A DNA stretch of 64,000 nucleotides from Candidatus Magasanikbacteria bacterium CG11_big_fil_rev_8_21_14_0_20_39_34 (GCA_002787355.1 PCWN01000007.1:248996-312995); one strand, 5' to 3'; counted from the first letter of the stretch, positions 2,976 through 53,550 are shown. Numbers and translations: made by a program. Notes: generated by a model from the sequence alone, not told the origin.

Positions 2976-4209
2976 AAATATTTTCTATTTTAACAAACTC
3001 TGCTTCATCTTTGGTACGAAGTTTCATTTCGAGAGTTTCATTTTCCAGTGTCTTTTGACTTACAATATAGCGTTTTGGAATTCCCAAAAGATCACTTTCT
3101 GCAAATTTTTGACCAGCACTTACGTCTTCTCTATCGTCAAAGAGTACCTCAACTCCACTTGCTTTGAGTTTTTGATAAATTTCTTCTGCTTGCTTCTTGT
3201 CATTTTCTTCCCTACAAAGAGAGATGAGATGCACCTGAAATGGGGCCACTGATTCTGGCCACACAATTCCCTTTTCATCTGCAAAACGTTCTACAATAAC
3301 TCCCATCAGTCGAGTAATGCCAATTCCGTAAGAACCAAGGTGGACAGGAATATTTTTTCCGGTATTGTCAACATAATTTAATCCTAACTGTTCGGTCTTG
3401 AGTGTTCCAAAGTTAAAGATATTTCCAACTTCTGCAGTTTTTACCAAAGTAAGTTCCTCTTTGGTTACTCCTAAATCGTTCAACGTTTCTTCATTGAGCA
3501 CTTCTTCATTTATGGCAATGTTCTTTTCTCGATTTATGTAAATCATGTCCTCCCCAGCATCGGTAATGGTTTGAAATTCGTGACTAAACTGCGTAAAGGC
3601 ACCTCCGGAAGCAAATGTTACAAAGGTATCATCTTTGAGCCCAACACGCTCAAATACGCGCATATACGCCTCTATAACCCCATTATAAAATGCTTCATGC
3701 TGTTGTTCATCGGTAGCATAGGAATACATATCTTTCATAACAAATTCCCGACCACGCATAATTCCACTTTTTGCCCGCAACTCATTCCGAAGTTTGGTTT
3801 GAAACTGGTATACATAAATAGGCAGATCCTTGTAACTGGAAATATAGTGCTTCATCATCTCAGTGATTGGTTCTTCATGAGACCATCCAAATCCTAACTC
3901 GACACCATTTTTTAGGGAAGATTTAAACCATACATCAACTTTCTCATCATCCCAACGATCTGTTTGTTCCCAAAGCTCTTTGCGTTGGAGTGCAGTCATG
4001 ATCAATTCTTGTCCTCCAATGGCATCCATTTCCTCACGAACAATCTGTTTTATTTTTTCAAGGACTCGAATACCCAAAGGAAGATATGCATATACACCTG
4101 CCATTTCTTTATAAATATAACCAGCACGAATAAGAAGTTGAGCATTAAATGCTACTTCTCCTGCAGGTGCTTCTTTTCGAGCTTTCGTAAAAAGGAGTGA
4201 TTGACGCAT
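2968..4209 (-). CDS. proS: Prolyl-tRNA synthetase, compact class II form (413 aa, no editing-domain insertion)
   Basis: The N-terminus MRQSLLFTKARKEAPAGEVAFNAQLLIRAGYI matches ProRS, it has class II motifs, and the C-terminal anticodon-binding region includes GIPKRYIVSQKT. Confidence 0.85.
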   Translation of the reverse strand: MRQSLLFTKARKEAPAGEVAFNAQLLIRAGYIYKEMAGVYAYLPLGIRVLEKIKQIVREEMDAIGGQELIMTALQRKELWEQTDRWDDEKVDVWFKSSLKNGVELGFGWSHEEPITEMMKHYISSYKDLPIYVYQFQTKLRNELRAKSGIMRGREFVMKDMYSYATDEQQHEAFYNGVIEAYMRVFERVGLKDDTFVTFASGGAFTQFSHEFQTITDAGEDMIYINREKNIAINEEVLNEETLNDLGVTKEELTLVKTAEVGNIFNFGTLKTEQLGLNYVDNTGKNIPVHLGSYGIGITRLMGVIVERFADEKGIVWPESVAPFQVHLISLCREENDKKQAEEIYQKLKASGVEVLFDDREDVSAGQKFAESDLLGIPKRYIVSQKTLENETLEMKLRTKDEAEFVKIENIYV

Positions 4210-4210
4210 A

Positions 4211-4651
4211 TTATATATGATTATGTTCTTTCAGGCTACGCTTCAACAAATAAGACAAACCCAAAGCTAAGATAAAAAAAGAAAAATTCCATATGGTGAG
4301 TAACCCTCTCCCTTGAAGAAAGAGTAAAAAAATAAGAACGAGAGAGAGAATGAGAGATTGCTTGAAACTTTTGGTAACAAGACGGTAGATCGGGGGCGGA
4401 ACCTTGACTAGGTATGAATAGGCCAAAAAAAATAATAATGAGAATGATCCCACGAATGCAAAACAAAGGCTCAGATAAAAAAAGATAAATCCTAAACTGT
4501 TACTTGTAAAAGGATCAATATTAAAAAGGACTACCACAAAGGAAGCCCAACAGAGAAGGGTTGCCATGAGCATTACGATAATATATTGCTTGAGTTTCAT
4601 AAAAAAAAGCCATTCTATGGCCATTTTATCGTATAAAAGCAATGTTTGCAA
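4211..4651 (-). CDS. Hypothetical membrane protein (about 4 TM)
   Basis: A 146-aa hydrophobic ORF with no recognisable motif. It is tightly packed between proS and the DUF721 gene. Confidence 0.35.
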   Translation of the reverse strand: MQTLLLYDKMAIEWLFFMKLKQYIIVMLMATLLCWASFVVVLFNIDPFTSNSLGFIFFYLSLCFAFVGSFSLLFFLAYSYLVKVPPPIYRLVTKSFKQSLILSLVLIFLLFLQGRGLLTIWNFSFFILALGLSYLLKRSLKEHNHI

Positions 4652-4661
4652 GGGGATGATT

Positions 4662-4952
4662 TTATGAGAGATACCGTATCCTGTCTACCTCTTTTTTCCC
4701 TAATTTTTCATTGATTTTTGCAACTAAATCCTCATGGTGAAGACGAATCTCTTGAGCTATTACACTGCTTGCGCAGGAGACCGTAAGTGTCCTGTTTTTC
4801 AAAAAGAGGGGTCTAATATAAGCCATTTTTTCTTGATCAAAAAAGGAGGCAAAAGCTTTTTCTGCAATCTCAACAACGCGGGATGCATCAATTTGATCTT
4901 GTAGGGAGGTATTTTGCATTTTTTTGCGTATAGCGTCTCCAAGTGATTGCAT
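4662..4952 (-). CDS. DUF721 (DciA-like) small protein
   Basis: A 96-aa protein with the pattern typical of the DUF721 family (LTVSCASSVIAQEIRLHHEDLVAKINEKLG). These are often encoded near replication or repair genes, and here it is adjacent to a helicase-nuclease. Confidence 0.45.
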   Translation of the reverse strand: MQSLGDAIRKKMQNTSLQDQIDASRVVEIAEKAFASFFDQEKMAYIRPLFLKNRTLTVSCASSVIAQEIRLHHEDLVAKINEKLGKKEVDRIRYLS

Positions 4953-7975: not shown

Positions 7976-8009
7976 TTATTGTATCAATAAGTTCTCATGC
8001 AAACAAGGC

Positions 8010-8438
8010 TTAATTGAGATGGACTTCCCTATACTTACTTCCTACATGAATACGTGCCAATTCCTTCTCAATTTTTGCTTGTAACAAGGCAAAGTCAACA
8101 TCTGCCAGCTTATCTTCATTTTTGAGGAGTTCTTCTGCACGCTTGAGTGCGTCCTGAGCACGTGAAAGGTCAATTTCCTCTGCACGTTCAGCGGTATCTG
8201 CCATTATATACACTCTACTGTCCGATTGTATCTCCAAAAATCCCCCAGAAACAGCAACATTTATAGTACTCCCATCAACTTTATGAACATTCATCTCACC
8301 AGACTGTAATACAGAAATCAAAGGCGCATGTCTTTCACACACCGTAATCATACCATTGGTGGTAGGAATGGAGACTTTTTCTATTTCGTCGCTGTAGGTC
8401 ACTCCATAGGGAGTAACAATTTTAAAATCAATAGGCAT
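8010..8438 (-). CDS. atpC: F1 ATP synthase epsilon subunit
   Basis: A 142-aa protein, MPIDFKIVTPYGVTYSDEIEKVSIPTTNGMITV, at the last position of the atp operon. Confidence 0.85.
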   Translation of the reverse strand: MPIDFKIVTPYGVTYSDEIEKVSIPTTNGMITVCERHAPLISVLQSGEMNVHKVDGSTINVAVSGGFLEIQSDSRVYIMADTAERAEEIDLSRAQDALKRAEELLKNEDKLADVDFALLQAKIEKELARIHVGSKYREVHLN

Positions 8439-8462
8439 AATATAATGCTAGCGTATAAGTTC

Positions 8463-9875
<1,413 letters not shown>

Positions 9876-9899: not shown

Positions 9900-10853
9900 T
9901 TATTCAAGTGCTGCCGCTCCTCCTGCAATTTCAGAAATTTCTTGTGTAATAGCAGCCTGTCTTGCCTTGTTAAAGGTCAACGTCAAGGAACCAATCATAT
10001 CCGAGGCGGCCTCACTCGCATTCTTCATAGCTACCATCCGTGCACTATGTTCACTTGCGGCTGACTCAAGTATAGTTTCAAACAACTGTACTTCCACAAG
10101 TCGTGGGATAATAGTATTGAGGATAGTTTCTAAATCCGGTTCAAATAAATAATTTTCAATTGGGAAAGGATCTTTATATGATTCATCCATTTCTTTTGGA
10201 AGTTGTTGCAAAGTTTTTTCCAAATCATGTTCTGAAATAGGAAGTAACTGCCTTATTTTTACCGTTTGAACCAAGGTAGATCCAAAATGTGTATACACAA
10301 CTGCAATCTTTTCATATTTCTTTTTCAAGAAGAGATCTACAACCATGTTGCTAATCGGAAGAACATCTTCGTAGGTTGGCTTTTCTGAAAGCTTATCAAA
10401 CACAGCTACCAAATCCAAACCATTTCTTTTTGCTATTAATGCACTCTTTTTTCCAATCCCCAAAACATCAATTTTTACATCTGACTCAGGTTCAATTTCA
10501 AAATCATTGGTAATTCTATGTTTTGAAAGATTTTGTTTGTCTTGTAAAAGTACTCCACATCTTTTGATTACATTGGCATTAAAACTTCCACATAATCCTC
10601 TATTTGAAGAAATAGCAATCAGTAACATGTTTTTGACTGGTCTTTTTTCTAGGAGAGGAAAATTTGGTTCGTCTACACGCGCAAGATGCGAAAGAATCTC
10701 AAGACAAAGGGACGCGTACATACGTGTAGAGAGTGCCGCATCTACCGCTCTTCGCATCTTTGCAGCAGAAACCATCTCCATTGCCTTGGTGATTTTTTTT
10801 GTGTTCTTTACAGATTTTATTCTGGCATTGATTGCCTTTGTAGAAACGGCCAT
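9900..10853 (-). CDS. atpG: F1 ATP synthase gamma subunit
   Basis: A 317-aa protein with the C-terminal ITQEISEIAGGAAAL helix conserved in gamma subunits. Confidence 0.9.
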   Translation of the reverse strand: MAVSTKAINARIKSVKNTKKITKAMEMVSAAKMRRAVDAALSTRMYASLCLEILSHLARVDEPNFPLLEKRPVKNMLLIAISSNRGLCGSFNANVIKRCGVLLQDKQNLSKHRITNDFEIEPESDVKIDVLGIGKKSALIAKRNGLDLVAVFDKLSEKPTYEDVLPISNMVVDLFLKKKYEKIAVVYTHFGSTLVQTVKIRQLLPISEHDLEKTLQQLPKEMDESYKDPFPIENYLFEPDLETILNTIIPRLVEVQLFETILESAASEHSARMVAMKNASEAASDMIGSLTLTFNKARQAAITQEISEIAGGAAALE

Positions 10854-10879
10854 AGTAGGTTCTTCTTTCTTGGAATCTT

Positions 10880-12373
10880 TTATTGTTTTTTAAATTCATC
10901 AAGAGCAAGTTTCAAATCCTCCACCACTTTATCATCCCACTTTCCTTCACGAATAGTTTCTAATAGTACAGATTTTGTACTTCTCATAAATTGAAGTAAT
11001 TTTTCTTCAACTCCACGAACATTTTCAACATTCTCTGCGTCCAAAAGTCCTTGGCTGGCTGCATATATTGATACAACTTGCTCCTCCACAAGCATTGGAC
11101 TGTATTGTGGTTGTTTCAGAAGTTCAGTAAAACGTCGTCCACGATCAATCTGCTTTTTGGTTTCTGGATCAAGATCTGAACTAAACTGTGCAAAGGCTTC
11201 CAACTCTCGAAACTGGGCCAAACTGAGTTTCAAGGTACCGGCAACTTTTTTCATTGGTTTGGTTTGAGCTGCTCCACCTACACGAGACACAGACAACCCA
11301 ACGTTAATAGCTGGTCGAACGCCTTTGTAGAAGAGATCACTCTCAAGATAAATCTGTCCATCGGTAATAGAAATAACATTCGTAGGAATATATGCAGATA
11401 CATCTCCTGCCTGTGTCTCAATAATTGGCAACGCAGTAATAGAACCTCCGCCATATTTGGTATTCAAACGACATGATCTCTCCAAAAGACGTGAGTGAAG
11501 ATAAAACACATCTCCAGGATACGCTTCACGTCCTGGTGGACGGCGCAAAAGTAATGACATTTCACGATATGCCCAAGCCTGTTTTGTAAGATCATCGTAC
11601 ACAATCAATACATCCTGTCCTTTGTCTGCAAAGTATTCTGCCATGGCAACTCCAGAATATGGAGCTAAATAACTCATAGGTGCTGGTTCTGAGGCTCCGG
11701 CTGTCACCACAATGGTGTAATCCATAGCTCCAAGTTCTTTCAAACGAGCAACAATGCGTGCAACTTTGGATTCCTTTTGTCCAATTGCAACGTAAACACA
11801 GGTCATGTTTTGTCCCTTTTGATTGAGGATAGTGTCAATGGCAATAGAGGTTTTTCCGGTCTGACGATCCCCAATAATCAACTCACGTTGACCACGTCCT
11901 ACCGGAGTCATCGCATCAATTGCTTTGATACCAGTTTGCATAGGAACACTTACGGGTTCACGAGACATCACACCAGAAGCAACTCGTTCGAGTGGATATT
12001 TTTTTGAAGTTTTCAATTCACCTAATCCATCTACCGGTTCACCAAGTGCATTCACCACGCGTCCAATAAGTGCCTCTCCTACGGGAACGGACATAATTTG
12101 TCCGGTTCTCTTTACGGTGTCCCCTTCTTTAATGGCTTTAAAATCCCCCAAAATAATTGCACCAACCGTTTCTTCTTCAAGGTTTAATGCAAGGCCTTTA
12201 ATTCCACCAGGAAATTCAAGCATTTCTTGTGCCTGACATTTTTCCAATCCGGTCATACGAGCAATACCATCTCCAACGGCAATAACGGTTCCAATTTCCT
12301 CAACCTTTATTTCAGTTTTTGATGCTTCAATTTGTTTCTTTAAATTGGCAACGATTTGATCTGTGTGTGACAT
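10880..12373 (-). CDS. atpA: F1 ATP synthase alpha subunit
   Basis: It has GDRQTGKTS Walker A over 497 aa, in the conserved operon order. Confidence 0.95.
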
Positions 12374-12374
12374 A

Positions 12375-12767
12375 CTACTGTTGAATTAATTCTCGTTTTA
12401 GTACTTCAAGTTGTGTTTTTATACTTCCATCTAGGATTTTATCTCCAGTATTGAGGATAATCCCTCCTATGATTGACTCATCAATCTCAGATTGTATATT
12501 TACTTTTTTTCCAAAACTTTTTTTTATTGCATCCAATGTAGAAGGCGCCAGTTTCTTTGCACTTTTTACTTGAATATCAAGTATACCTTCCTTTTTTTTT
12601 GCATATTTTTCAAACTCGGCAATGATATAGTTTACTTTTGAAAAAACGTACTCCCCCTTCAAAAAATTGATAAACTCAGCAATGGCAAGTTCCAACTCTT
12701 CTCCCTTCTTTCCCAACGTTATCTCGTAGAGAATCTTTGCATATTGTCGTGGAATCATTTTAGCCAT
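12375..12767 (-). CDS. atpH: F1 ATP synthase delta subunit (short form, 130 aa)
   Basis: It sits between atpF and atpA, with an OSCP-like C-terminal region. Confidence 0.65.
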
Positions 12768-12788
12768 AAAACCTTACTAAAAAAGAAA

Positions 12789-13295
12789 TTATTTTAATGA
12801 CGCAAGGATATCTTTAATATATTTTTCATCCTTTTTATCATTCAACTTCTCATGGATAATCTTCTCAACTGCAAGAACAACTAGCTCAATCGTCTCACGG
12901 CGCAAAGCATCTCGCATATCGGCTCTATCAATTTCTATATTCTTCTTTGCTTGTGCAATCAAAAGTTCAATTTCCTCTTTTGCCTTTTTCTTCATTTGTT
13001 CTCCTGCTCCCACTGCCTGTTGATGCGAATTTTCAACAATTTTATTGGCTTCAACTTTTGCATTATCAATAATATCCTGTGCCTTTTTTTCTGCCATCTG
13101 CAAATCAGTTTTTGACTTCTCATAGTTCTCCATTCCTTCTGTCATCTTACTTTGTCGTTCATCGATAACCTTCATGATGGGCTTAAATGCAAATTTTTTC
13201 AAAAGCCAGAAGACAACCAAAAAGTTAATAAGGTTGAAAAGTCCCATGTGCCATTCAAAACCAATTTTTCCAAGCGTTTCAAGTATATAATTCAT
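12789..13295 (-). CDS. atpF: F0 ATP synthase subunit b
   Basis: An N-terminal TM helix followed by a long charged coiled coil, at the expected operon position. Confidence 0.7.
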   Translation of the reverse strand: MNYILETLGKIGFEWHMGLFNLINFLVVFWLLKKFAFKPIMKVIDERQSKMTEGMENYEKSKTDLQMAEKKAQDIIDNAKVEANKIVENSHQQAVGAGEQMKKKAKEEIELLIAQAKKNIEIDRADMRDALRRETIELVVLAVEKIIHEKLNDKKDEKYIKDILASLK

Positions 13296-43666: not shown

Positions 43667-44293
43667 ATGTTTACCTTCACAGTATACCAAACGCTTGAAT
43701 TCCCAGCAATTATTGGTATACTCAAAGGGAAATGTATTCAATTATTTGCTATGTCAACCATTCGTTTTACAACCAAACTTCTTACTATTGGATCCACTAC
43801 CCTTGTACACCTTCCCCTGAGCGCTAGTAAAAAGCTCCCTTCTCGTGGGATGGTTATGGTGGACGGAAATATCAATGGTTTTGATTTTCAGGCCCCCTTG
43901 GAGCCGGATGGAAAAGAAAGTCACTGGTTTGAGGTAGAGAAGGCTCTACTCAACGGAACAGGAATAAAGCCAGGAGATACACTCACACTTACCATTACTC
44001 CATCCAAGAATTGGCCAGATCCAAAAATACCAAAAGACTTCCAAGAAGTTCTTTTTGCCAATACAGAAGCCAAAAAAACCTGGATGGATACCACTCCCCT
44101 TGCCCGTTGGGACTGGATACGTTGGATACGATCCACCAAACAACCGGAGACAAGAAAGAGACGTATTGAAGTAGCTTGCTCAAAACTTGAATCTGGAAAA
44201 AAAAGACCCTGTTGTTTCAATAGGAATCTTTGCACACAACCATCCGTATCACACAATGGAATCCTTCTTGAGAATACAGAGTCAAAAAAATAA
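43667..44293 (+). CDS. DUF1905 plus YdeI/OmpD-associated (bacteriocin-protection-like) domain protein
   Basis: The DUF1905-like region is MVMVDGNINGFDFQAPLEPDGKESHWFEV, and the C-terminal YdeI-like region is TWMDTTPLARWDWIRWIRSTKQPETRKRRIE. Confidence 0.5.
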   Translation: MFTFTVYQTLEFPAIIGILKGKCIQLFAMSTIRFTTKLLTIGSTTLVHLPLSASKKLPSRGMVMVDGNINGFDFQAPLEPDGKESHWFEVEKALLNGTGIKPGDTLTLTITPSKNWPDPKIPKDFQEVLFANTEAKKTWMDTTPLARWDWIRWIRSTKQPETRKRRIEVACSKLESGKKRPCCFNRNLCTQPSVSHNGILLENTESKK

Positions 44294-44326: not shown

Positions 44327-44560
44327 ATGAAACATATTCACTTGAAGCCAAGCTGGACAACCATTATCCTCTTTATGGCAATTATTCTTGCTCCCATCAT
44401 AGACGGCTACCCTGCTTTTGTCTTATTTTTTACGTATATAAAACTTGGTGAATTTTCTGCCCTTTTACTTATCCTTGGTTTTTTTGTATTTGCCTATATG
44501 GTTGCATACATGTTATCAAGAGGAATACTCTACACAAAAAATAGGTTGATGAGAAGATAA
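44327..44560 (+). CDS. Small two-TM membrane protein
   Basis: A 77-aa hydrophobic protein with no known motif. Confidence 0.3.
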   Translation: MKHIHLKPSWTTIILFMAIILAPIIDGYPAFVLFFTYIKLGEFSALLLILGFFVFAYMVAYMLSRGILYTKNRLMRR

Positions 44561-44588
44561 TCAAAAATTTGGATACCCTAAAAATGAT

Positions 44589-44960
44589 TTGTTTATGAAA
44601 ACATTTGTACAGTTTTTACTGAGTCTTCTTACAAGTATACTTCTTGGCATCTTGGGGCTTGGTGTCGGTGCCACTATTGGCGGTAATTTTGGTTTTCCTG
44701 CATTTGGGGGAAATGTTGGATATGAAGCCGGAGGTGTTTTTTTTGCAATTTTGGGAATTTCTTTGGGTAGCTTTTTCTTTTTTACATTACAAAATAAATT
44801 ACAATCAAAACAATTTCAATTCAAAATGCTCCTTGCAACTGCACTTACATTTTTTAAAGGAAACAAACCAAAAGCAAATTTAAAAATATGTTTCCAGTCT
44901 TTACTATTTATATTTCAAATTCTTGATCAACTTCTGCTAGATGTGTTTTTAACTCGTTAA
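44589..44960 (+). CDS. Small Gly-rich membrane protein
   Basis: A 123-aa protein with an N-terminal TM helix and Gly-rich hydrophobic segments (GVGATIGGNFGFPAFGGNVGYEAGG). Confidence 0.3.
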   Translation: MFMKTFVQFLLSLLTSILLGILGLGVGATIGGNFGFPAFGGNVGYEAGGVFFAILGISLGSFFFFTLQNKLQSKQFQFKMLLATALTFFKGNKPKANLKICFQSLLFIFQILDQLLLDVFLTR

Positions 44961-45876
44961 TCCCAGCGTCAAGAGCGTCAATATAAACTTCAAGTTCATA
45001 ATTTTCAAAATTGCCGGTTTGTTGAAATGTTTCAATTTTGCCAAATACATAATCTAATTTTTTGATTACTTCTTCTGTTCCTGGAATCCTCAAAGTTTCT
45101 CCAAATTTACCATAACGATTTTCCAAGCCTCTTTTTATCTTTTTATATAGCTTGTGATAATGATTAAAACTAGGCCACGCTAAAGGGTGACCCCATTGAA
45201 CGCCATAAATAAGATTTATCTGATACAGAGAAGGCTTATTTAACAAATCGGCTAATTTTTCATTTTTGAATTTTGTTTTGTGTTCTTTCTCTTCTTTTTG
45301 AATTTCTTTCATAACCATTTCTAATTCATTTCCGAGATGTTTATCTTGCTGACTGATGATATCCGCAAATTTTATGGTTTTACTTTCTGTTTTTGAGTGC
45401 ATCCACAACCTATATCTGAAACCGTCTTTGCTCAAAGATGAGCGGTCAATGGTACAAGAGGTAATTTCGTCATTTTCATACTTTGATTTATTACCTCTAT
45501 TTTCCTTTTTTACAGGGTGTCCGATGGTTTCATTTCTGACTTGTCTAATTTTAAAAAGTTCGGAATATTTATTGTCTGTACAATTAATTTTTTTGCTTAT
45601 ACCAAATAAAGATATTTTCAAAAAGTTTACAGCGTCTTGCTGGATAAAAAGAGCTTGTAAAAGTCCATAGGTTGCTAAATATGGGTTTTTTATAAATAAA
45701 TCGTTCGAATTTTTTTGGAAATCTTCTATTGCCAAGCAGGTATCTTCCAGCGTATCTAATGCCGCACAAAATTGATTCCAGTCGCCACTCTGTTTTCTGG
45801 AATAAACTTGAGTCTTTTTTATTGTGGAGCTATTAAAAAGCTCCCTGATTTGATGGGTGATTTCTGTAACGAGCAT
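44908..45876 (-). CDS. Hypothetical island protein with a HEPN-like Rx5H motif, a possible abortive-infection-type RNase
   Basis: A 322-aa protein. KIRQVRNETIGHP fits the HEPN Rx(4-6)H signature in a predicted helical N-terminal region. Its codon usage is more AT-rich than neighbouring housekeeping genes. No other recognisable domain was seen. Confidence 0.35.
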   Translation of the reverse strand: MLVTEITHQIRELFNSSTIKKTQVYSRKQSGDWNQFCAALDTLEDTCLAIEDFQKNSNDLFIKNPYLATYGLLQALFIQQDAVNFLKISLFGISKKINCTDNKYSELFKIRQVRNETIGHPVKKENRGNKSKYENDEITSCTIDRSSLSKDGFRYRLWMHSKTESKTIKFADIISQQDKHLGNELEMVMKEIQKEEKEHKTKFKNEKLADLLNKPSLYQINLIYGVQWGHPLAWPSFNHYHKLYKKIKRGLENRYGKFGETLRIPGTEEVIKKLDYVFGKIETFQQTGNFENYELEVYIDALDAGINELKTHLAEVDQEFEI

Positions 45877-45923
45877 ATCTTATAAATAAAAAGGAAAGAA
45901 ATTTTTGGTTTTCTGCCGCCGCT

Positions 45924-46058
45924 TCACTCCTCCAAAAAGGCTAATAAGTATAGTTTAACATTTTTGCAGAGTTTACGCCCGCCTTTTCTCCGTCGTTTGC
46001 GTCGGCGCGAGGCGCGACGGTAACTCGGAAGTCCACTCACGCTTCGCAAGCAAATCAT
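45924..46058 (-). CDS. Tiny (44 codon) arginine/lysine-rich ORF in a GC-rich spacer; it may be a structured non-coding element instead
   Basis: It translates as MICLRSVSGLPSYRRASRRRKRRRKGGRKLCKNVKLYLLAFLEE. The ATG is 9 nt downstream of, and in frame with, the TAA stop of the NDT-like gene. The region is locally GC-rich (CGN codons or a GC hairpin CGTCGGCGCGAGGCGCGACG). It is below the ORF-track size cut-off. Confidence 0.2.
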   Translation of the reverse strand: MICLRSVSGLPSYRRASRRRKRRRKGGRKLCKNVKLYLLAFLEE

Positions 46059-46067
46059 ATTTTGTTC

Positions 46068-46436
46068 TTACATTTGATTCAGAATTTGTTCAATTCCAAA
46101 AATTAATTCTTTATTATTAGAATATTCAACAAAGTTCTTTGAAACTACTTTTAATGAACCTGATACTTTTGAACCTTTTTTGAAAATACATACTATTGGA
46201 ACTCCGTATGTGTCTGCCCAACCTAATTCAATTCCTAAACCAGTAGCTGGTTCAGAAACTTCTGCAATTAATAATTCTGCTTCATTTTTCAAATAGTCTT
46301 TGGAATTGAATGGTTCATCAGAAGTTTCATGAGGTAAAACAAAAGTATGTTCACCATTTAAGGAACTTTGTCTAATTGGTTCATATAATTCTTTTTTGAA
46401 GTCAAAACTTCTTGAATGTGCAACGTAAATCTTCAT
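46068..46436 (-). CDS. Nucleoside 2-deoxyribosyltransferase-like (NDT/SLOG-clade Rossmann-like) small protein
   Basis: A 122-aa protein. The N-terminus KIYVAHSRSFDF and the C-terminal ATGLGIELGWADTYGVPIV match the NDT-family pattern (K-I-Y-x-A... / D-x-G-T-x-x-E-x-G-x-A-x-x-x-G-K/V-P-V) with the catalytic Glu. It is a very AT-rich gene. Confidence 0.5.
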   Translation of the reverse strand: MKIYVAHSRSFDFKKELYEPIRQSSLNGEHTFVLPHETSDEPFNSKDYLKNEAELLIAEVSEPATGLGIELGWADTYGVPIVCIFKKGSKVSGSLKVVSKNFVEYSNNKELIFGIEQILNQM

Positions 46437-46575
46437 AAAGTAAAAAATTGATTGTTTATATATAAATCTGATGGTGCAAAACTTGATTACTCCTAATGTT
46501 CACGTATATCTGATGTTGCAACCGCAGCGAGCACTACCGCCCAAGCAACAGCAGGAGCGAGCCAGATATACGCTA

Positions 46576-47139
46576 TTACGAGTTGTAATTTCTAAAACTA
46601 TTCCTCATTCCAGCTGCATCATTTAATATTTCGTACTTATTCCCCACAATCCGAAAATGTCTAGAAAAATAATACTTCTTAGAAGAACTGTTTAGAGCCC
46701 AATAGATAATTTCTATTTTAGATGTACCTATTATATCTGTGGGTTTGGTGTTTGGTATTCTATAACTCTTTGAGTGATGTTTAAGACTTTGGTCTGGATA
46801 CAAAATCACACTTTCATCATTGGCTGATTTGCTTTTTTCACCATTGAATTCGGACATCCCGATAAATTGAATAGGGACTTTTCCCACGTTCTTCACAGAA
46901 TAAAAAAACTGTATAAAATCTGTCGTCTCACTCAAATTTTTTCCGTCACCGCTTACAATTAATTCAATATCACGCTCTATTGTTACATATGGGGTTGTAA
47001 ATAGTTCAAGTTGCTTCTCCGACACATTTGAAAGGACGTGCGTTTTATATGTATACCAAATCGTAATTATAACAAGAACTATTGTTGAAAGCGCTTGAAC
47101 AGCAGCCACGTTTTCGTTTAAAAATTTAATTAAATACAT
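46576..47139 (-). CDS. Hypothetical N-terminally membrane-anchored protein
   Basis: A 187-aa protein with one N-terminal TM helix (LSTIVLVIITIWYTY) and a beta-rich soluble part. No motif was recognised. Confidence 0.35.
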   Translation of the reverse strand: MYLIKFLNENVAAVQALSTIVLVIITIWYTYKTHVLSNVSEKQLELFTTPYVTIERDIELIVSGDGKNLSETTDFIQFFYSVKNVGKVPIQFIGMSEFNGEKSKSANDESVILYPDQSLKHHSKSYRIPNTKPTDIIGTSKIEIIYWALNSSSKKYYFSRHFRIVGNKYEILNDAAGMRNSFRNYNS

Positions 47140-47253
47140 AGTTTTAGAAATTATTTCAGCTGACGTCTATGAATAGTCGAAGTTTGAAAGTGCTAAAATG
47201 GGAGCCTTAGCGACCCACCACTGCCAAATTTGGGTGAGTGAGCGTTAAAAAAA

Positions 47254-47487
47254 TTATTTCAAAAATTTGTATTCAATAAATAATCCTATTAGTACAGGCA
47301 CAGTGCCAATAACAATAAGCCAAAACGTTTTAGGACGTTTTTCAATAAATTCATGCAGTATGCGACTTTTTATCATTTTTGTTCCTTGCCCATCAATCTT
47401 TGCACCTTGAATATCGCAATCTTCAAATGTGTTATCTTTTGCCTCTTTTCTGACATGAAGGGAGAATTTTTGATTATTTTTGGTCAT
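47254..47487 (-). CDS. Small tail-anchored membrane protein
   Basis: A 77-aa protein with a C-terminal TM helix (TFWLIVIGTVPVLIGLFIEY). Confidence 0.3.
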   Translation of the reverse strand: MTKNNQKFSLHVRKEAKDNTFEDCDIQGAKIDGQGTKMIKSRILHEFIEKRPKTFWLIVIGTVPVLIGLFIEYKFLK

Positions 47488-47548
47488 ATTTTTGAAATAA
47501 TTTTTACCGAGTGAATCGACTATACTGTATTAGCAGATGTAATGCCAC

Positions 47549-48244
47549 TTAGATTTTACTGCTTAGATGCTTAACAATTTTTTGGATTTCTTTTAGAGAC
47601 TTCTGCATAAGCGTCAATGCAGAAATATTGACACTATCAAATTTGAAATCAACCCACAAAATTCTTTTCACCTGAATTGAAGGATTTGGAAATGGCATAT
47701 TTGTTGTTTGGTCTACTTCAGATCCAAAAATTCTTGCTCCCTTTCCGAATTTTGCAAGTTTCGGATTATAAGACAGGCCGCCACCTTGAATGTGGTCAAC
47801 ATCCACACATTCTTGCTCTTCTCTTGTTTGTTCAATGAGGTCAACATGCTTGTTTCCTATGTTTACATCGTTAAATTGCTTCAACCACATTTGTTCTTGC
47901 CCCTGAAATGGCTGAATTGATAACAAGTATGAATAAAGATCGAGATTACCATCTTTAAGTCCGGGGAACCATTTATTTATACACTTTTCGAAACTTGTCA
48001 AATCGGGAAGGATCGGGAAATAAAAAATCTTGCTTCCTTGATTATTTACAACCGAACTTTCACGAATTTCATTTGCTAGATAGTCAAGTACTGAGCGAAT
48101 ATTTTCAAAAAGATTTTTTATTTCCACCTTCAATTCAGGTTTAATTTGCTTCTTATGCAGGGAATTATTGTATTCCTTTGTGATCTCCTCTAATTGTTGA
48201 GCAGCCTTCTTTAACAGTGCTTTTATACTTTTTGCTCTTTTCAT
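47549..48244 (-). CDS. Hypothetical island protein (231 aa)
   Basis: It is the first gene of the minus-strand island gene string and has no recognisable motif. A helical N-terminus is predicted. Confidence 0.35.
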   Translation of the reverse strand: MKRAKSIKALLKKAAQQLEEITKEYNNSLHKKQIKPELKVEIKNLFENIRSVLDYLANEIRESSVVNNQGSKIFYFPILPDLTSFEKCINKWFPGLKDGNLDLYSYLLSIQPFQGQEQMWLKQFNDVNIGNKHVDLIEQTREEQECVDVDHIQGGGLSYNPKLAKFGKGARIFGSEVDQTTNMPFPNPSIQVKRILWVDFKFDSVNISALTLMQKSLKEIQKIVKHLSSKI

Positions 48245-48332
48245 AATTTTTAGTTAAATGGCACCATTTCCGCTAACGTTTCTAAGTATGTAAAATTTTA
48301 CTGAAATAGTCTGGAAAATTGGGCGATGCCCC

Positions 48333-48361
48333 TTGACGAAGCCGATTAATTTTAATACAAT
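48333..48361 (+). promoter_or_regulatory. Near-consensus sigma70-type promoter (TTGACG-17 nt-TACAAT)
   Basis: TTGACG is at 48333-48338 and TACAAT at 48356-48361, with a 17-nt spacer. No protein-coding gene follows on this strand. Confidence 0.5.
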
Positions 48362-48367
48362 GAATGA

Positions 48368-48556
48368 GACCGCCTTACGTGGCGCCTGCTGTGTAACAGC
48401 CGAAAGGTGCGTGTACCAGTAGTTTCAGGCACGAGGAACTTAAAAATGCTGGGACCAGAATAGAACTTGACCTGCTATTTATAGCAGAGATAGTGATTCC
48501 CTAACCATGCGGTTTCTAGGACTGTCTCGAGATCCATTTGAGGCGGTTTTTTTTTG
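48368..48556 (+). ncRNA. Candidate sRNA of about 190 nt (identity unknown; 6S-like architecture is possible)
   Basis: It lies downstream of the promoter above. It is GC-rich relative to the genome. The 5' ACCGCCU pairs with the 3' AGGCGGU as a closing stem, followed immediately by U9. It has internal hairpins such as CUGCUAUUUAUAGCAG. No ORF is present. Confidence 0.4.
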
Positions 48557-48591
48557 CTAAAAACAAATTACTCCGACATTTTCCTAACTAG

Positions 48592-48678
48592 CGGAGAAGG
48601 CGGGATTCGAACCCGCGGTACGGTTTCCCGTACACATCCTTTCCAAGGATGCGCATTCGACCACTCTGCCACCTCTCC
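48592..48678 (-). tRNA. tRNA-Ser (anticodon GGA), class II with a long variable arm; CCA is not encoded
   Basis: It folds by hand into a cloverleaf. The acceptor stem is GGAGAGG/CTTCTCC, the anticodon stem-loop is CATCC-TTGGAAA-GGATG, the variable arm is TACGG-GAAA-CCGTA, and the T-arm is GCGGG-TTCGAAT-CCCGC. Confidence 0.9.
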
Positions 48679-48697
48679 GTAATATATGTTCCTCTTT

Positions 48698-49471
48698 TTA
48701 GGAGCTTTTCTTTTTCCTCAAAAATATCCAAACTCCCAAACAGAACAAGACTATAGAAAAATATTGCGCCGGTGTCAAGCCCAAAATACGCACGTCCGAG
48801 TAGATAAGATCCGTGGCTCTATAGAAATCAAGAAAAAATCGTACAAAACCGTAGTACATGGCCACTATTCCTGCAAAAAACCCTGTGGAAAATTTCTTTT
48901 TGCGGACAAAGAAAAAGGCAAGAGCAAGCGGAATCATGGCAAGAATTTCCATCAACGCCATGTCCAAGCGTGGTCCTCCCGGACTTTTGAGTGCTAAAAG
49001 AGAATGAGACAACGTTCCCGGATGATCATGGATAAGAAAACATCCTACTCTTCCAACAATCCAACCAAACACCGCTCCAAACGCAAAGATATCCAAAATT
49101 TCTGATAAATCCTTTTTGGAAAACGATGCTTTTTTTCTGGCGTAGTAGAGTCCACCCAAAAATGCTCCAACAAAACCTCCGTAGGAAGAAAGTCCCCCTT
49201 CCCATACTTTTATAATATCTATGGGATGAGCCAGGTAAAATGACAGATCATAAAAAAGAATATGAAAGACCCGAGAAAAAACAAGACCAAAGAGAATAGC
49301 ATAGCTTGCCATATCAATAAGTTTTTCTGCCACTTCTTTTGAAAACAGTCTTTTTGCTCTTTTATAAATAATAAAAACAGAAAGTAACATTCCAAGCGCA
49401 ACAAAAAATCCCCATACTTGAATAGGTATGGGACCCAGATGTACAACGGTAAATTGAAAGTATGGAATCAT
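48698..49471 (-). CDS. lgt: Prolipoprotein diacylglyceryl transferase
   Basis: A polytopic membrane protein with the Lgt signature region GRVGCFLIHDHPG and a typical N-terminus. Confidence 0.85.
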   Translation of the reverse strand: MIPYFQFTVVHLGPIPIQVWGFFVALGMLLSVFIIYKRAKRLFSKEVAEKLIDMASYAILFGLVFSRVFHILFYDLSFYLAHPIDIIKVWEGGLSSYGGFVGAFLGGLYYARKKASFSKKDLSEILDIFAFGAVFGWIVGRVGCFLIHDHPGTLSHSLLALKSPGGPRLDMALMEILAMIPLALAFFFVRKKKFSTGFFAGIVAMYYGFVRFFLDFYRATDLIYSDVRILGLTPAQYFSIVLFCLGVWIFLRKKKSS

Positions 49472-52771: not shown

Positions 52772-52869
52772 AGTGAATTTAGTCCTATTTTAATACAATG
52801 TAGCCTTCTATGCAAGTTCTCTTCTTGCTCTGAGACACTAGACATTTCTTTTTTTCTATGCTTAAATGA

Positions 52870-53040
52870 AAGAGCTATTGCCCACCACGGCAAAGAGGGG
52901 TTTCCCTGATCGTCAGGGAGTCGGCAGTCCACCAAGTTGGGGCAACCGCGAGGTCTGTGTCCAATGCCGATAAGCGCTTTCTTCCTCGGTCAAAAGCGCT
53001 TACCCTCTTGACCCAACCCCAAAAAAAGGATAAGTATGTA
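52870..53040. ncRNA. GC-rich multi-hairpin structured element of unknown function; strand unresolved
   Basis: It has consecutive perfect hairpins: UUGCC-N7-GGCAA, CCCUGA-UCG-UCAGGG, and AAGCGCUUU-N11-AAAGCGCUU. Its GC content is well above the local background. Both strands carry only short overlapping ORFs. A weak hairpin plus T8 follows at 53043-53070. Confidence 0.3.
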
Positions 53041-53089
53041 AAAAAGCCCTTAATTTAGGCTTTTTTTTGTTTTATACACAGGTCTCCTC

Positions 53090-53118
53090 TTGACAAAATA
53101 TAAAAAATGGTATATATT
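53090..53118 (+). promoter_or_regulatory. Near-consensus sigma70-type promoter (TTGACA-17 nt-TATATT)
   Basis: TTGACA is at 53090-53095 and TATATT at 53113-53118, with a 17-nt spacer. Confidence 0.5.
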
Positions 53119-53123
53119 GGCGA

Positions 53124-53357
53124 GTCGACGTCTGAAGATTCAGGTAGTTGAAGAAAACCGGAAGGACATAGAAGCCTTCAACAAACGGTATTCCGAAAAC
53201 ACCCACACCCGAATCGACGGATTCTCTCACCCTCTGACCGAGGACCACCAGTCTCGACCTTTGCCCGGGGTCACTGGTGATGGAGGGATCGTCTCGAGCT
53301 CCAAGCTCCTGACGTCGACACTCCAATAAAGAGTCTCAATAATGGGGCTTTTTTTGT
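53124..53357 (+). ncRNA. Candidate sRNA of about 230 nt (identity unknown)
   Basis: It lies downstream of the promoter above. It is GC-rich. A 5' GAGUCGACGUC pairs with a 3' GACGUCGAC-A-CUC closing stem. An internal stem is GUUGAAG...CUUCAAC. It ends in GGGGCUUUUUUU. The overlapping 79-aa ORF (53090..53329) starts at TTG inside the -35 box and is rejected as coding. Confidence 0.4.
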
Positions 53358-53421
53358 TTGTACAAAATTTTTTTGTATTGTATAAAGATTGTCTGTCATT
53401 AACTGGATTACGTGCAGGTAG

Positions 53422-53533
53422 GTAGATTGCCACGCTGTATACTCAGCTCGCAATGACAATTTGTCTCTGCCTCCGGATGACCCCCTCCTCTCCGTCATTG
53501 CGAGGAGTCCGTAGAGACGACGTGGCAATCTTC
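53422..53533. repeat. Long nested near-perfect palindrome (stem-loop of about 110 nt) immediately 3' of ligA
   Basis: The outer arms are GTAGATTGCCACG / CGTGGCAATCT(T)C. The inner arms are ACTC-ag-CTCGCAATGAC / GTCATTGCGAG-GAGT. This gives about 26 bp of pairing around a 36-nt C/U-rich loop (GTCTCTGCCTCCGGATGACCCCCTCCTCTCC). Confidence 0.5.
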
Positions 53534-53550
53534 GTGTTAGAAAAGAAATT

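Follow-up and report, generated by a model that had tools for sequence, protein, structure and literature searches.

A probable remnant of an integron-type gene-cassette array next to lgt and tRNA-Ser in a Magasanikbacteria genome

Do neighbouring genes of no recognisable family that share strand and composition form one system, or have they come together independently? This question is raised by five consecutive minus-strand open reading frames (ORFs), here labelled A to E, in the genome of Candidatus Magasanikbacteria bacterium CG11_big_fil_rev_8_21_14_0_20_39_34. We analyzed a stretch of 64,000 nt of this genome (GCA_002787355.1 PCWN01000007.1:248996-312995), which is called the window throughout and in which all positions are counted. 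A first-pass annotation had described the block of five genes as an AT-rich accessory island abutting a tRNA-Ser(GGA) gene and as a candidate conflict or defence system. In our analysis the block is probably, with a likelihood of roughly two in three (0.68), a decayed remnant of an integron-type gene-cassette array lying in a variable region downstream of lgt and tRNA-Ser and resembling the clusters of attC sites lacking integrases (CALINs).

The evidence comes from the spacers between the genes. As stated before, these are unusually long, with 61, 114, 139 and 191 nt compared to a median intergenic distance of 20.5 nt in the window, and three of them are within the six longest of the window's 66. 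Using nhmmer and alignment, we found that the B/C and C/D spacers resemble intergenic sequences beside E homologs in three other contigs (L106-L108), and that the 52 nt preceding D have a counterpart in front of a D homolog in a further contig (L102). In the spacer alignment the arms of a hairpin differ between the copies yet stay complementary, followed by a conserved ...AAC-GTTAG, and the same architecture is present behind almost every ORF in L106 and L102. Each site is composed, in this order, of an R'' box (xxxTAAC), an unpaired A, an L'' arm of 10-11 nt, a variable centre, a complementary L' arm, (G)AAC and an R' box, the latter being GTTAGCT, GTTAAAT, GTTGTGA, GTTAAGC or GTTAGGC in the copies seen (general form GTTRRRY). 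The attC sites of integrons are laid out as RYYYAAC ... GTTRRRY. When 12 copies were aligned with MAFFT, the structure of 16 pairs formed by R''/R' and L''/L' was 87.8% paired, compared to 25-34% for slid controls. Eleven of the 16 pairs have changed on both sides, and none of 500 shuffles reached the observed level of covariation. The 12 copies therefore show what is expected of attC sites, an imperfect palindrome whose structure is kept above its sequence.

Two covariance models were used for the detection of further sites. As the first one (R1) included the C/D copy of the window, a second model (R2) was built separately from 25 copies of L082, L102, L105, L106, L108 and L164 only, which contained no window sequence. 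With this independent model the site in the C/D spacer was recovered with an E-value of 8.8e-9 (Table 1). It reads TCGTAAT-A-GCGTATATCTG ... CAGATATACGT-GAAC-ATTAGGA, and the stop codon of C sits within its R'' box. The C-G pair of the core is replaced by T-A (AAC to AAT, GTT to ATT), a compensated change that none of the other 11 aligned copies shows. A second element, about 570 nt apart from the first and located in the B/C spacer, is degenerate, truncated at its 5' end and marginal in score (E=0.18). Its link to intergenic elements in L106 and L108 was obtained by nhmmer and alignment; the 3' end reads CGACTATTCATAG-AC-GTCAGCT, with GTC replacing GTT, and the 5' arm is lost. When R2 was run over the whole window with filters off, all further matches had E-values of 2 or higher. 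The D/E spacer may represent a decayed site or a junction. Furthermore, the homology between the window and L102 around D starts just 3' of the R' core, as is expected of a cassette boundary, and downstream of D the two sequences have diverged. The first impression that the block shows no recombination sites is therefore superseded by the attC-like sites in its spacers. The idea that the spacers are terminators or small RNAs was dropped, as their folds as RNA are not more stable than those of shuffled sequences (z-scores from 0 to about -1.25).

In other Patescibacteria contigs these sites form arrays. R1 gave 33 matches in 0.65 Mb of loci carrying E, D or A homologs, all of them co-oriented with the genes, and no match in 1.14 Mb of lgt control loci. 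The sites are clustered in arrays in L082/L116, L102, L105-L108 and L164. In L082, which is part of a contig of 385 kb, they bracket a module of an N6_N4 methyltransferase, an MvaI/BcnI restriction endonuclease and an E homolog, then a DUF218 gene, an epimerase gene and a gene for a protein of 532 aa. In L102 a tyrosine recombinase of 279 aa is encoded on the minus strand (4063-4902) and is followed by eight sites between plus-strand ORFs, and this array includes a D homolog of 89% identity. L106 is organized likewise, with a recombinase of 283 aa on the minus strand (223-1074), which is 37% identical to that of L102, and an E homolog of 90% identity in the array. Both integron-like elements were called complete and span L102:4063-9760 and L106:223-8867. 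Co-oriented cassettes together with a divergent recombinase, an attI-like site and a G|TT crossover were thus found in L102 and L106, and not in the window.

A comparison of L106 and L107 places the crossover at the core of the site. The two contigs are 100% identical over 4678 nt and the identity starts exactly at GTTATGT. Upstream of this motif, the recombinase gene of L106 is accompanied by ACATAAC-TGA (L106:1075-1120), which is the inverted counterpart of the core and in this sense attI-like, and L107 contains the attC of another cassette ending with ...CGAAAC (L107:1335-1470). Insertion or excision of an integron cassette leaves just such a breakpoint at G|TT, between an attI-like site and an attC-like one, and the break is best read as a natural gain or loss of a cassette at the canonical crossover.

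The recombinases of these arrays differ from classical integron integrases. The L102 enzyme scores 242 bits with NF040815 (XerA-type tyrosine recombinase/integron integrase), above the cut-off of 220, and 232.8 bits in two separate stretches with TIGR02249 (integron integrase), below the cut-off of 265, and it is 33% identical to IntI1. In an alignment of the L102 and L106 enzymes with IntI1 of pZS50 the insertion of about 42 residues that makes up the IntI-specific domain is absent. This additional domain around patch III is described as a defining feature of IntIs (PMC9668308); with about 280 aa the array recombinases lack it, and the window is without any recombinase. The domain is considered essential for the recognition of folded attC sites. 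Judged by their sequences, these elements would fit integrons in every respect tested and fail in one defining feature.

We assume the following course of events. In the intact form, as in L102 and L106, a Xer-like tyrosine recombinase is encoded divergently from the array and each cassette consists of one, two or three co-oriented ORFs with an attC-like site behind them; recombination at the G|TT of R' or of the attI core would add or remove cassettes. The cargo genes of the window would have arrived independently as such cassettes, captured in the past, after which the array would have been eroded by point mutation and illegitimate recombination; the recombinase would have been an enzyme of the Xer-like type. 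The closest relatives of E, located in L105-L108 and 90-92% identical, indicate the extent of the loss. There, E occupies the second position in a cassette of two genes, its reading frame begins about 10 codons sooner, and an attC-like site comes about 120 nt behind it; in the window the upstream partner gene, about 10 N-terminal codons and the downstream site are all lost. As no recombinase is encoded within the 64 kb and the sites are mutated or truncated, the array is most likely frozen; an enzyme encoded elsewhere in the genome might act on it in trans. Decayed arrays without integrase are common (PMC9024848; PMC9668308; bioRxiv 10.1101/2024.07.02.601686), and the usual definition of a CALIN asks for two or more attC sites separated by less than 4 kb and for no integrase in the vicinity (PMC9668308; PMC9024848).

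Several points weigh against this interpretation. Only one site of the window is statistically solid and the second is marginal, so that the CALIN definition applies only loosely, and the crossover of the solid site is ATT instead of GTT. Neither R1 nor R2 found a site above noise in the A/B spacer, the D/E spacer, the 3' flank of E or the gap next to the tRNA. Nothing at all indicates that A and B were cassettes. Outside the window, most homologs of E and D are located outside arrays of this site family. The sites were called with covariance models built here. L106 and L107 are metagenome contigs, which might contain an assembly artefact at a repeated site. Finally, as the IntI-specific domain is absent, the role of the recombinase is read from its position only.

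The main rival is a generic genomic islet at a tRNA-Ser hotspot, which would have been acquired by non-integron routes such as a decayed integrative element, transformation or illegitimate recombination and in which a stray attC-like site hitch-hiked with D or C. We consider this explanation unlikely, even if it accounts for some of the data. For comparison, 80 lgt neighbourhoods were fetched from species representatives, in which the closest lgt is 53% identical. The order gatA-LOG-lgt is kept in the Magasanikbacteria-like subset of these loci, and in about 19 of these relatives tRNA-Ser(GGA) directly follows lgt. Downstream of lgt and the tRNA none of them has any of A to E, an S51 peptidase, a NUDIX or a DUF1905 gene, which supports the earlier view of an accessory locus. 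In one relative (L044) a conserved block begins right behind the tRNA, in two others (L040, L036) three unrelated genes are interposed, and in L005 and L007 differing small genes are followed by a shared block. The contents after the tRNA thus vary by genome, and in this clade the conserved part ends with tRNA-Ser, beyond which a variable region follows. This region is variable in relatives without attC-like sites, which is in line with an islet, as are the single robust site, the missing cassette signature of A and B, and the 5' end and 3' flank of E, which look like products of illegitimate recombination. The downstream genes of the relatives have no homologs in the window, and with lgt identities of 53% at most the relatives stand too far from the window's genome to fix the far boundary of the insertion.

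On the other hand, the features of a tRNA-targeting integrative island, an adjacent integrase and, at the far boundary, a direct repeat of the tRNA's 3' end, were not found. No tyrosine recombinase or integrase is encoded within the window, and the 3' end of the tRNA (22 nt) occurs only once even if up to 3 mismatches are allowed, so that the first-pass annotation was right in both respects. Furthermore, two adjacent spacers contain elements of one family that point the same way as the genes, cassettes carry both the nearest E homologs (90-92%) and a close D homolog (89%), and the homology around D starts at the core of the site. These points weigh against a stray site.

An anti-phage system composed of all five genes, with D as NDT/SLOG-like sensor or enzyme, B and C as membrane components and E as HEPN RNase, is highly improbable. 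In its favour, the genes are co-oriented, AT-rich and orphan, the E family keeps an invariant R-x5-H motif, A appears to have a HEPN-like fold, and restriction-modification (R-M), Shedu or AAA_15 genes are frequent beside E homologs. To find out how often the genes occur together, A to E were compared by tblastn with all fetched loci (about 190 related loci). A, B, C and D are all absent from 80 loci with E homologs, A, B, C and E from 6 loci with D homologs and B to E from 10 loci with A homologs; near-identical contigs of the source population are the only exceptions. No pair of the five genes, including the NDT-like and membrane protein genes for which joint occurrence had been suggested as a test, was thus found together in the roughly 96 homolog loci beyond the source population, and this lack of co-occurrence already largely refutes the idea of one combined conflict or defence system. 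In addition, D is ubiquitous in Patescibacteria and located in housekeeping contexts, no PADLOC model matches, and the long spacers contain elements that resemble recombination sites and not operon junctions. From these comparisons, A to E are most likely unrelated cargo genes and the combination of NDT, transmembrane and HEPN proteins appears to be an accident of cassette juxtaposition.

That the five are ordinary lineage-specific genes separated by terminators or repeats like repetitive extragenic palindromic sequences, without a role in recombination, fits the spacer folds, which are not more stable than those of shuffled sequences, and the abundance of orphan genes in Patescibacteria and is nevertheless very improbable, as the sites have no T-run, conserved R''/R' boxes enclose covarying arms, co-orientation is strict and the arrays lie beside a divergent recombinase, the breakpoint falls exactly at GTT, and no copies were found in the 1.14 Mb of control loci.

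The arrays resemble sedentary chromosomal integrons and CALINs in that short, co-oriented and mostly promoterless ORFs are each followed by an R''(..AAC)/L''...L'/R'(GTTRRRY) palindrome and that many of the cargo genes are orphans or belong to R-M and other defence types; the divergent recombinase beside the first cassette in L102 and L106 and the crossover at G|TT are also integron-like. In addition to the compact recombinase they differ in their Patescibacteria host, and the window copy differs by its one solid site, its ATT core and the missing recombinase. No mention of Patescibacteria was found in the archaeal-integron paper and the IntegronFinder 2 survey, and a limited search, which is no proof of novelty, revealed no literature on such elements in this group. 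Arrays of chromosomal integrons are known stores of defence genes (bioRxiv 10.1101/2024.07.02.601686). It is conceivable, but we put it forward only tentatively and with less than even odds, that Patescibacteria carry a distinct integron-like system with classical attC-type sites and a compact Xer-like recombinase without the IntI domain, that whole R-M modules and the large unannotated E family travel in it as cassettes, that the window contains a fossil of it, and that E and A are new families of cassette-borne HEPN-like defence proteins or toxins.

If this is true, integron-style gene capture would operate in ultra-small, host-dependent bacteria, and with a recombinase devoid of the domain by which integron integrases are both defined and found computationally. 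As IntegronFinder-type tools require the IntI domain, such elements would be reported only as orphan attC clusters. The system would also bear on the evolution of attC recognition from Xer-type recombinases and would open a way for genes, among them R-M and other defence cargo, to spread in a group whose genomes are tiny. Intact attC-type arrays with a compact Xer-like recombinase are therefore a lead that reaches beyond the window. For annotation, some caution seems advisable, as co-oriented orphan genes with long spacers may be independent cassettes, which the spacers can reveal.

At the level of single proteins, searches of Pfam, PADLOC, NCBIfam and PHROGs gave no significant match for A to E. 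The best library matches were those of D to PF05014 (E=0.051) and of A to phrog_13652 (E=3e-5), and in PADLOC-DB v2 nothing better than E=0.011 was obtained for any of the five.

E belongs to a very large family without a Pfam model. A word-index search revealed 76 homologs with 27-93% identity, 408 relatives are present in metagenomes of the Joint Genome Institute, and an exhaustive profile search (E<=1e-3) found 2201 clusters at 50% identity; a Pfam scan of 27 members gave only noise. The model of E (predicted local distance difference test score of 89) is helical with a three-stranded sheet at residues 138-169. Invariant residues of the family include D41, D45, G71, Q74, Q80, R111, R114 and H120, among others, so that the Rx5H motif already noticed in the first-pass annotation corresponds to an invariant R114-x5-H120. 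The family had no match in viral contigs, and its sole match in the phage and plasmid scans is located on a Marinobacter plasmid near a SIR2 gene. Among 149 non-redundant nearest neighbours, a descriptive tally without a matched control, the commonest Pfam families are DNA methylases (N6_Mtase, 5; N6_N4_Mtase, 3; Eco57I, 3), components of type I R-M systems (Methylase_S, 3; HSDR_N, 3), ResIII, AAA_15/AAA_21 and SMC_N. Housekeeping genes occur as well, and a tally based on PADLOC agrees with that based on Pfam. In one context E is accompanied by a Shedu-like SduA_C gene and AAA_15. Elsewhere E is often the last gene of an R-M cassette or neighbourhood, and E homologs in cassette contexts were found in L082, L105-L108 and L164. 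We assume that E is most likely an accessory effector that travels with R-M modules and that it is possibly HEPN-like; HEPN toxins and Abi-type HEPN proteins (SO_3166 of HEPN-MNT, AbiU2) are among the closest known systems. With over 2,000 clusters, no entry in Pfam and R-M genes often nearby, the family is a concrete candidate for defence screens. Three members (P0266, P0311 and P0373 with 574, 542 and 487 aa) have C-terminal extensions of 170-250 aa, compared to a usual length of about 310-330 aa.

A, which is 100% identical to COV59_03255, appears to contain an N-terminal HEPN-like four-helix domain followed by a beta domain and a C-terminal helix, and we regard it as a putative HEPN-fold protein. 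Its family is an orphan one with 44 homologs and is represented by solitary genes in several phyla; these include copies with 42-46% identity in non-Patescibacteria contigs, located beside transposase fragments. A Pfam scan of 27 family members gave only noise, the phage and plasmid scans found one distant match in a Bacillus phage, and a comparison of the A and E families by hhalign indicated no relationship (probability 0.2%). No array sites were found in the loci of A homologs. In one of these loci, the Bacteroidota-like contig L097, a confirmed A homolog of 229 aa (8001-8690) is accompanied about 4 kb off by a second gene of 229 aa (12477-13166), which is below the tblastn threshold, and a weak attC-like match lies between the two (10810-10888, 25.1 bits, E=0.008). 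B and C are presumably orphan membrane proteins: homologs of B were absent from every fetched locus and from phages, those of C from fetched loci, viral contigs and phages.

D is of a different kind. At least 450 homologs with 58-91% identity exist, some of which carry PF05014, and they are present in Magasanikbacteria, Uhrbacteria and Harrisonbacteria. The family is very common in Patescibacteria and usually sits among housekeeping genes, for example between folD and pilB-PBP2 or directly after pheS-pheT. No match was found in scans of viral contigs. D alone stays below the Pfam threshold (PF05014). Compared with structures in the PDB, the family profile matches DNPH1/Rcl with E=1.4e-6 across the GLGIELGWA motif, MilB with E=7e-4 and NDT with E=0.07, so that the NDT-like nature proposed earlier has been substantiated. 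The alignment with DNPH1/Rcl chains runs over the catalytic-Glu motif AEVSxPxTGLGIELGWA, and G66, G68, E70 and G72 are invariant; the NDT/DNPH1 superfamily (PF05014) is characterised by a Rossmann-like fold with the catalytic Glu in an hGxGxExG motif. D differs from these enzymes in being shorter (122 aa, of which about 40 residues align) and in its contexts, which are mostly related to housekeeping rather than to defence. From its sequence, D may be a nucleotide N-glycosidase or deoxyribosyltransferase, nearest to the DNPH1/Rcl type. Its GC content at third codon positions (0.146) is by far the lowest in the window, where 0.25-0.35 is typical, and D is far better conserved (58-91%) than the neighbouring core gene lgt (at most 53%).

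The layout of the locus is summarized in Table 1. The ORF list confirms that all five genes are present at the sizes first reported and are co-oriented on the minus strand. It was also correct that the block is AT-rich. Its GC content is 34.8% compared to 38.1% for the window, which places it in the lowest 2.3% of equal-sized windows; the coding GC of A to E is 0.29-0.35, and 44450-48240 is the most AT-rich 3.8-kb stretch of the window (33.5% GC). Altogether, our data support the view that the block is accessory, compositionally deviant and horizontally mobile. It does not begin immediately beyond the 3' end of the tRNA as had been assumed, since a non-coding gap intervenes, and three plus-strand genes stand between E and the S51 peptidase on the other side. 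In both the window and the block the tRNA was the only Rfam match.

Table 1. Positions of genes, spacers and attC-like elements in and around the block (window coordinates).
Feature	Position	Strand	Remarks
DUF1905/OmdA gene	43667-44293	plus	between E and S51 peptidase
small membrane-protein ORF	44327-44560	plus	77 aa, shares low GC
small membrane-protein ORF	44589-44960	plus	about 121-123 aa, shares low GC
ORF E	44908-45876	minus	322 aa, very large unannotated family
D/E spacer	45877-46067	minus	191 nt, GC-rich, end ...GCAAAAAT-GTTAAAC
ORF D	46068-46436	minus	122 aa, NDT-superfamily
attC-like site, C/D spacer	46488-46584	minus	R2 48.8 bits, E=8.8e-9; R1 73.3 bits
ORF C	46576-47139	minus	187 aa, hydrophobic helix at N-terminus, orphan
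attC-like element, B/C spacer	47155-47284	minus	degenerate, 5'-truncated; R2 17.2 bits, E=0.18
ORF B	47254-47487	minus	77 aa, hydrophobic helix at C-terminus, orphan
ORF A	47549-48244	minus	231 aa
tRNA/ORF A gap	48245-48590		346 nt, non-coding
tRNA-Ser(GGA)	48591-48678	minus	ARAGORN; Rfam tRNA 58.9 bits; sole tRNA of window
lgt	48698-49471		conserved neighbour of tRNA-Ser

At the other end of the block, the larger of the two small membrane-protein ORFs (123 aa) and the 3' end of E overlap convergently by 53 nt (44908-44960). The tail of this ORF is antisense to the conserved C-terminus of E and matches the antisense strand of the E homologs in L105-L108, which suggests that its reading frame was extended into inserted DNA. 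A low-coverage contig of another sample (L092) matches the window with 99.8% identity as far as the middle of E, where the similarity ends (L092 from 4912; window position 45124). Beyond this break it contains an ADH-like gene and a fragment of an IS1595-like transposase, and E is cut short at 256 aa; L092 represents a strain variant or else a chimeric assembly.

Two further observations concern non-coding regions. Between gatC and ligA the window contains an apparently non-coding and relatively GC-rich gap of about 780 nt (52772-53550) with a dubious ORF of 108 aa and two terminator-like hairpins, in which Rfam gave only noise. The synteny of the window with L087, a contig of the same population, ends within this gap at 53460. 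The gap between the tRNA and A contains a candidate structured small RNA on the plus strand (about 48360-48562), for which neither a match in Rfam nor a homolog among the fetched loci was found. It is preceded by a promoter-like sequence, TTGACG-17-TACAAT, at 48333-48361 (plus strand), and a terminator-like hairpin with a T-run is located at 48518-48550. About 190 nt are closed by a helix of 12 bp (GAGACCGCCUUA / UUUGAGGCGGUUU), followed by a U run, and the predicted fold of 203 nt has a free energy of -64.4 kcal/mol (z=-3.1), a stability reached by none of 200 shuffled sequences.

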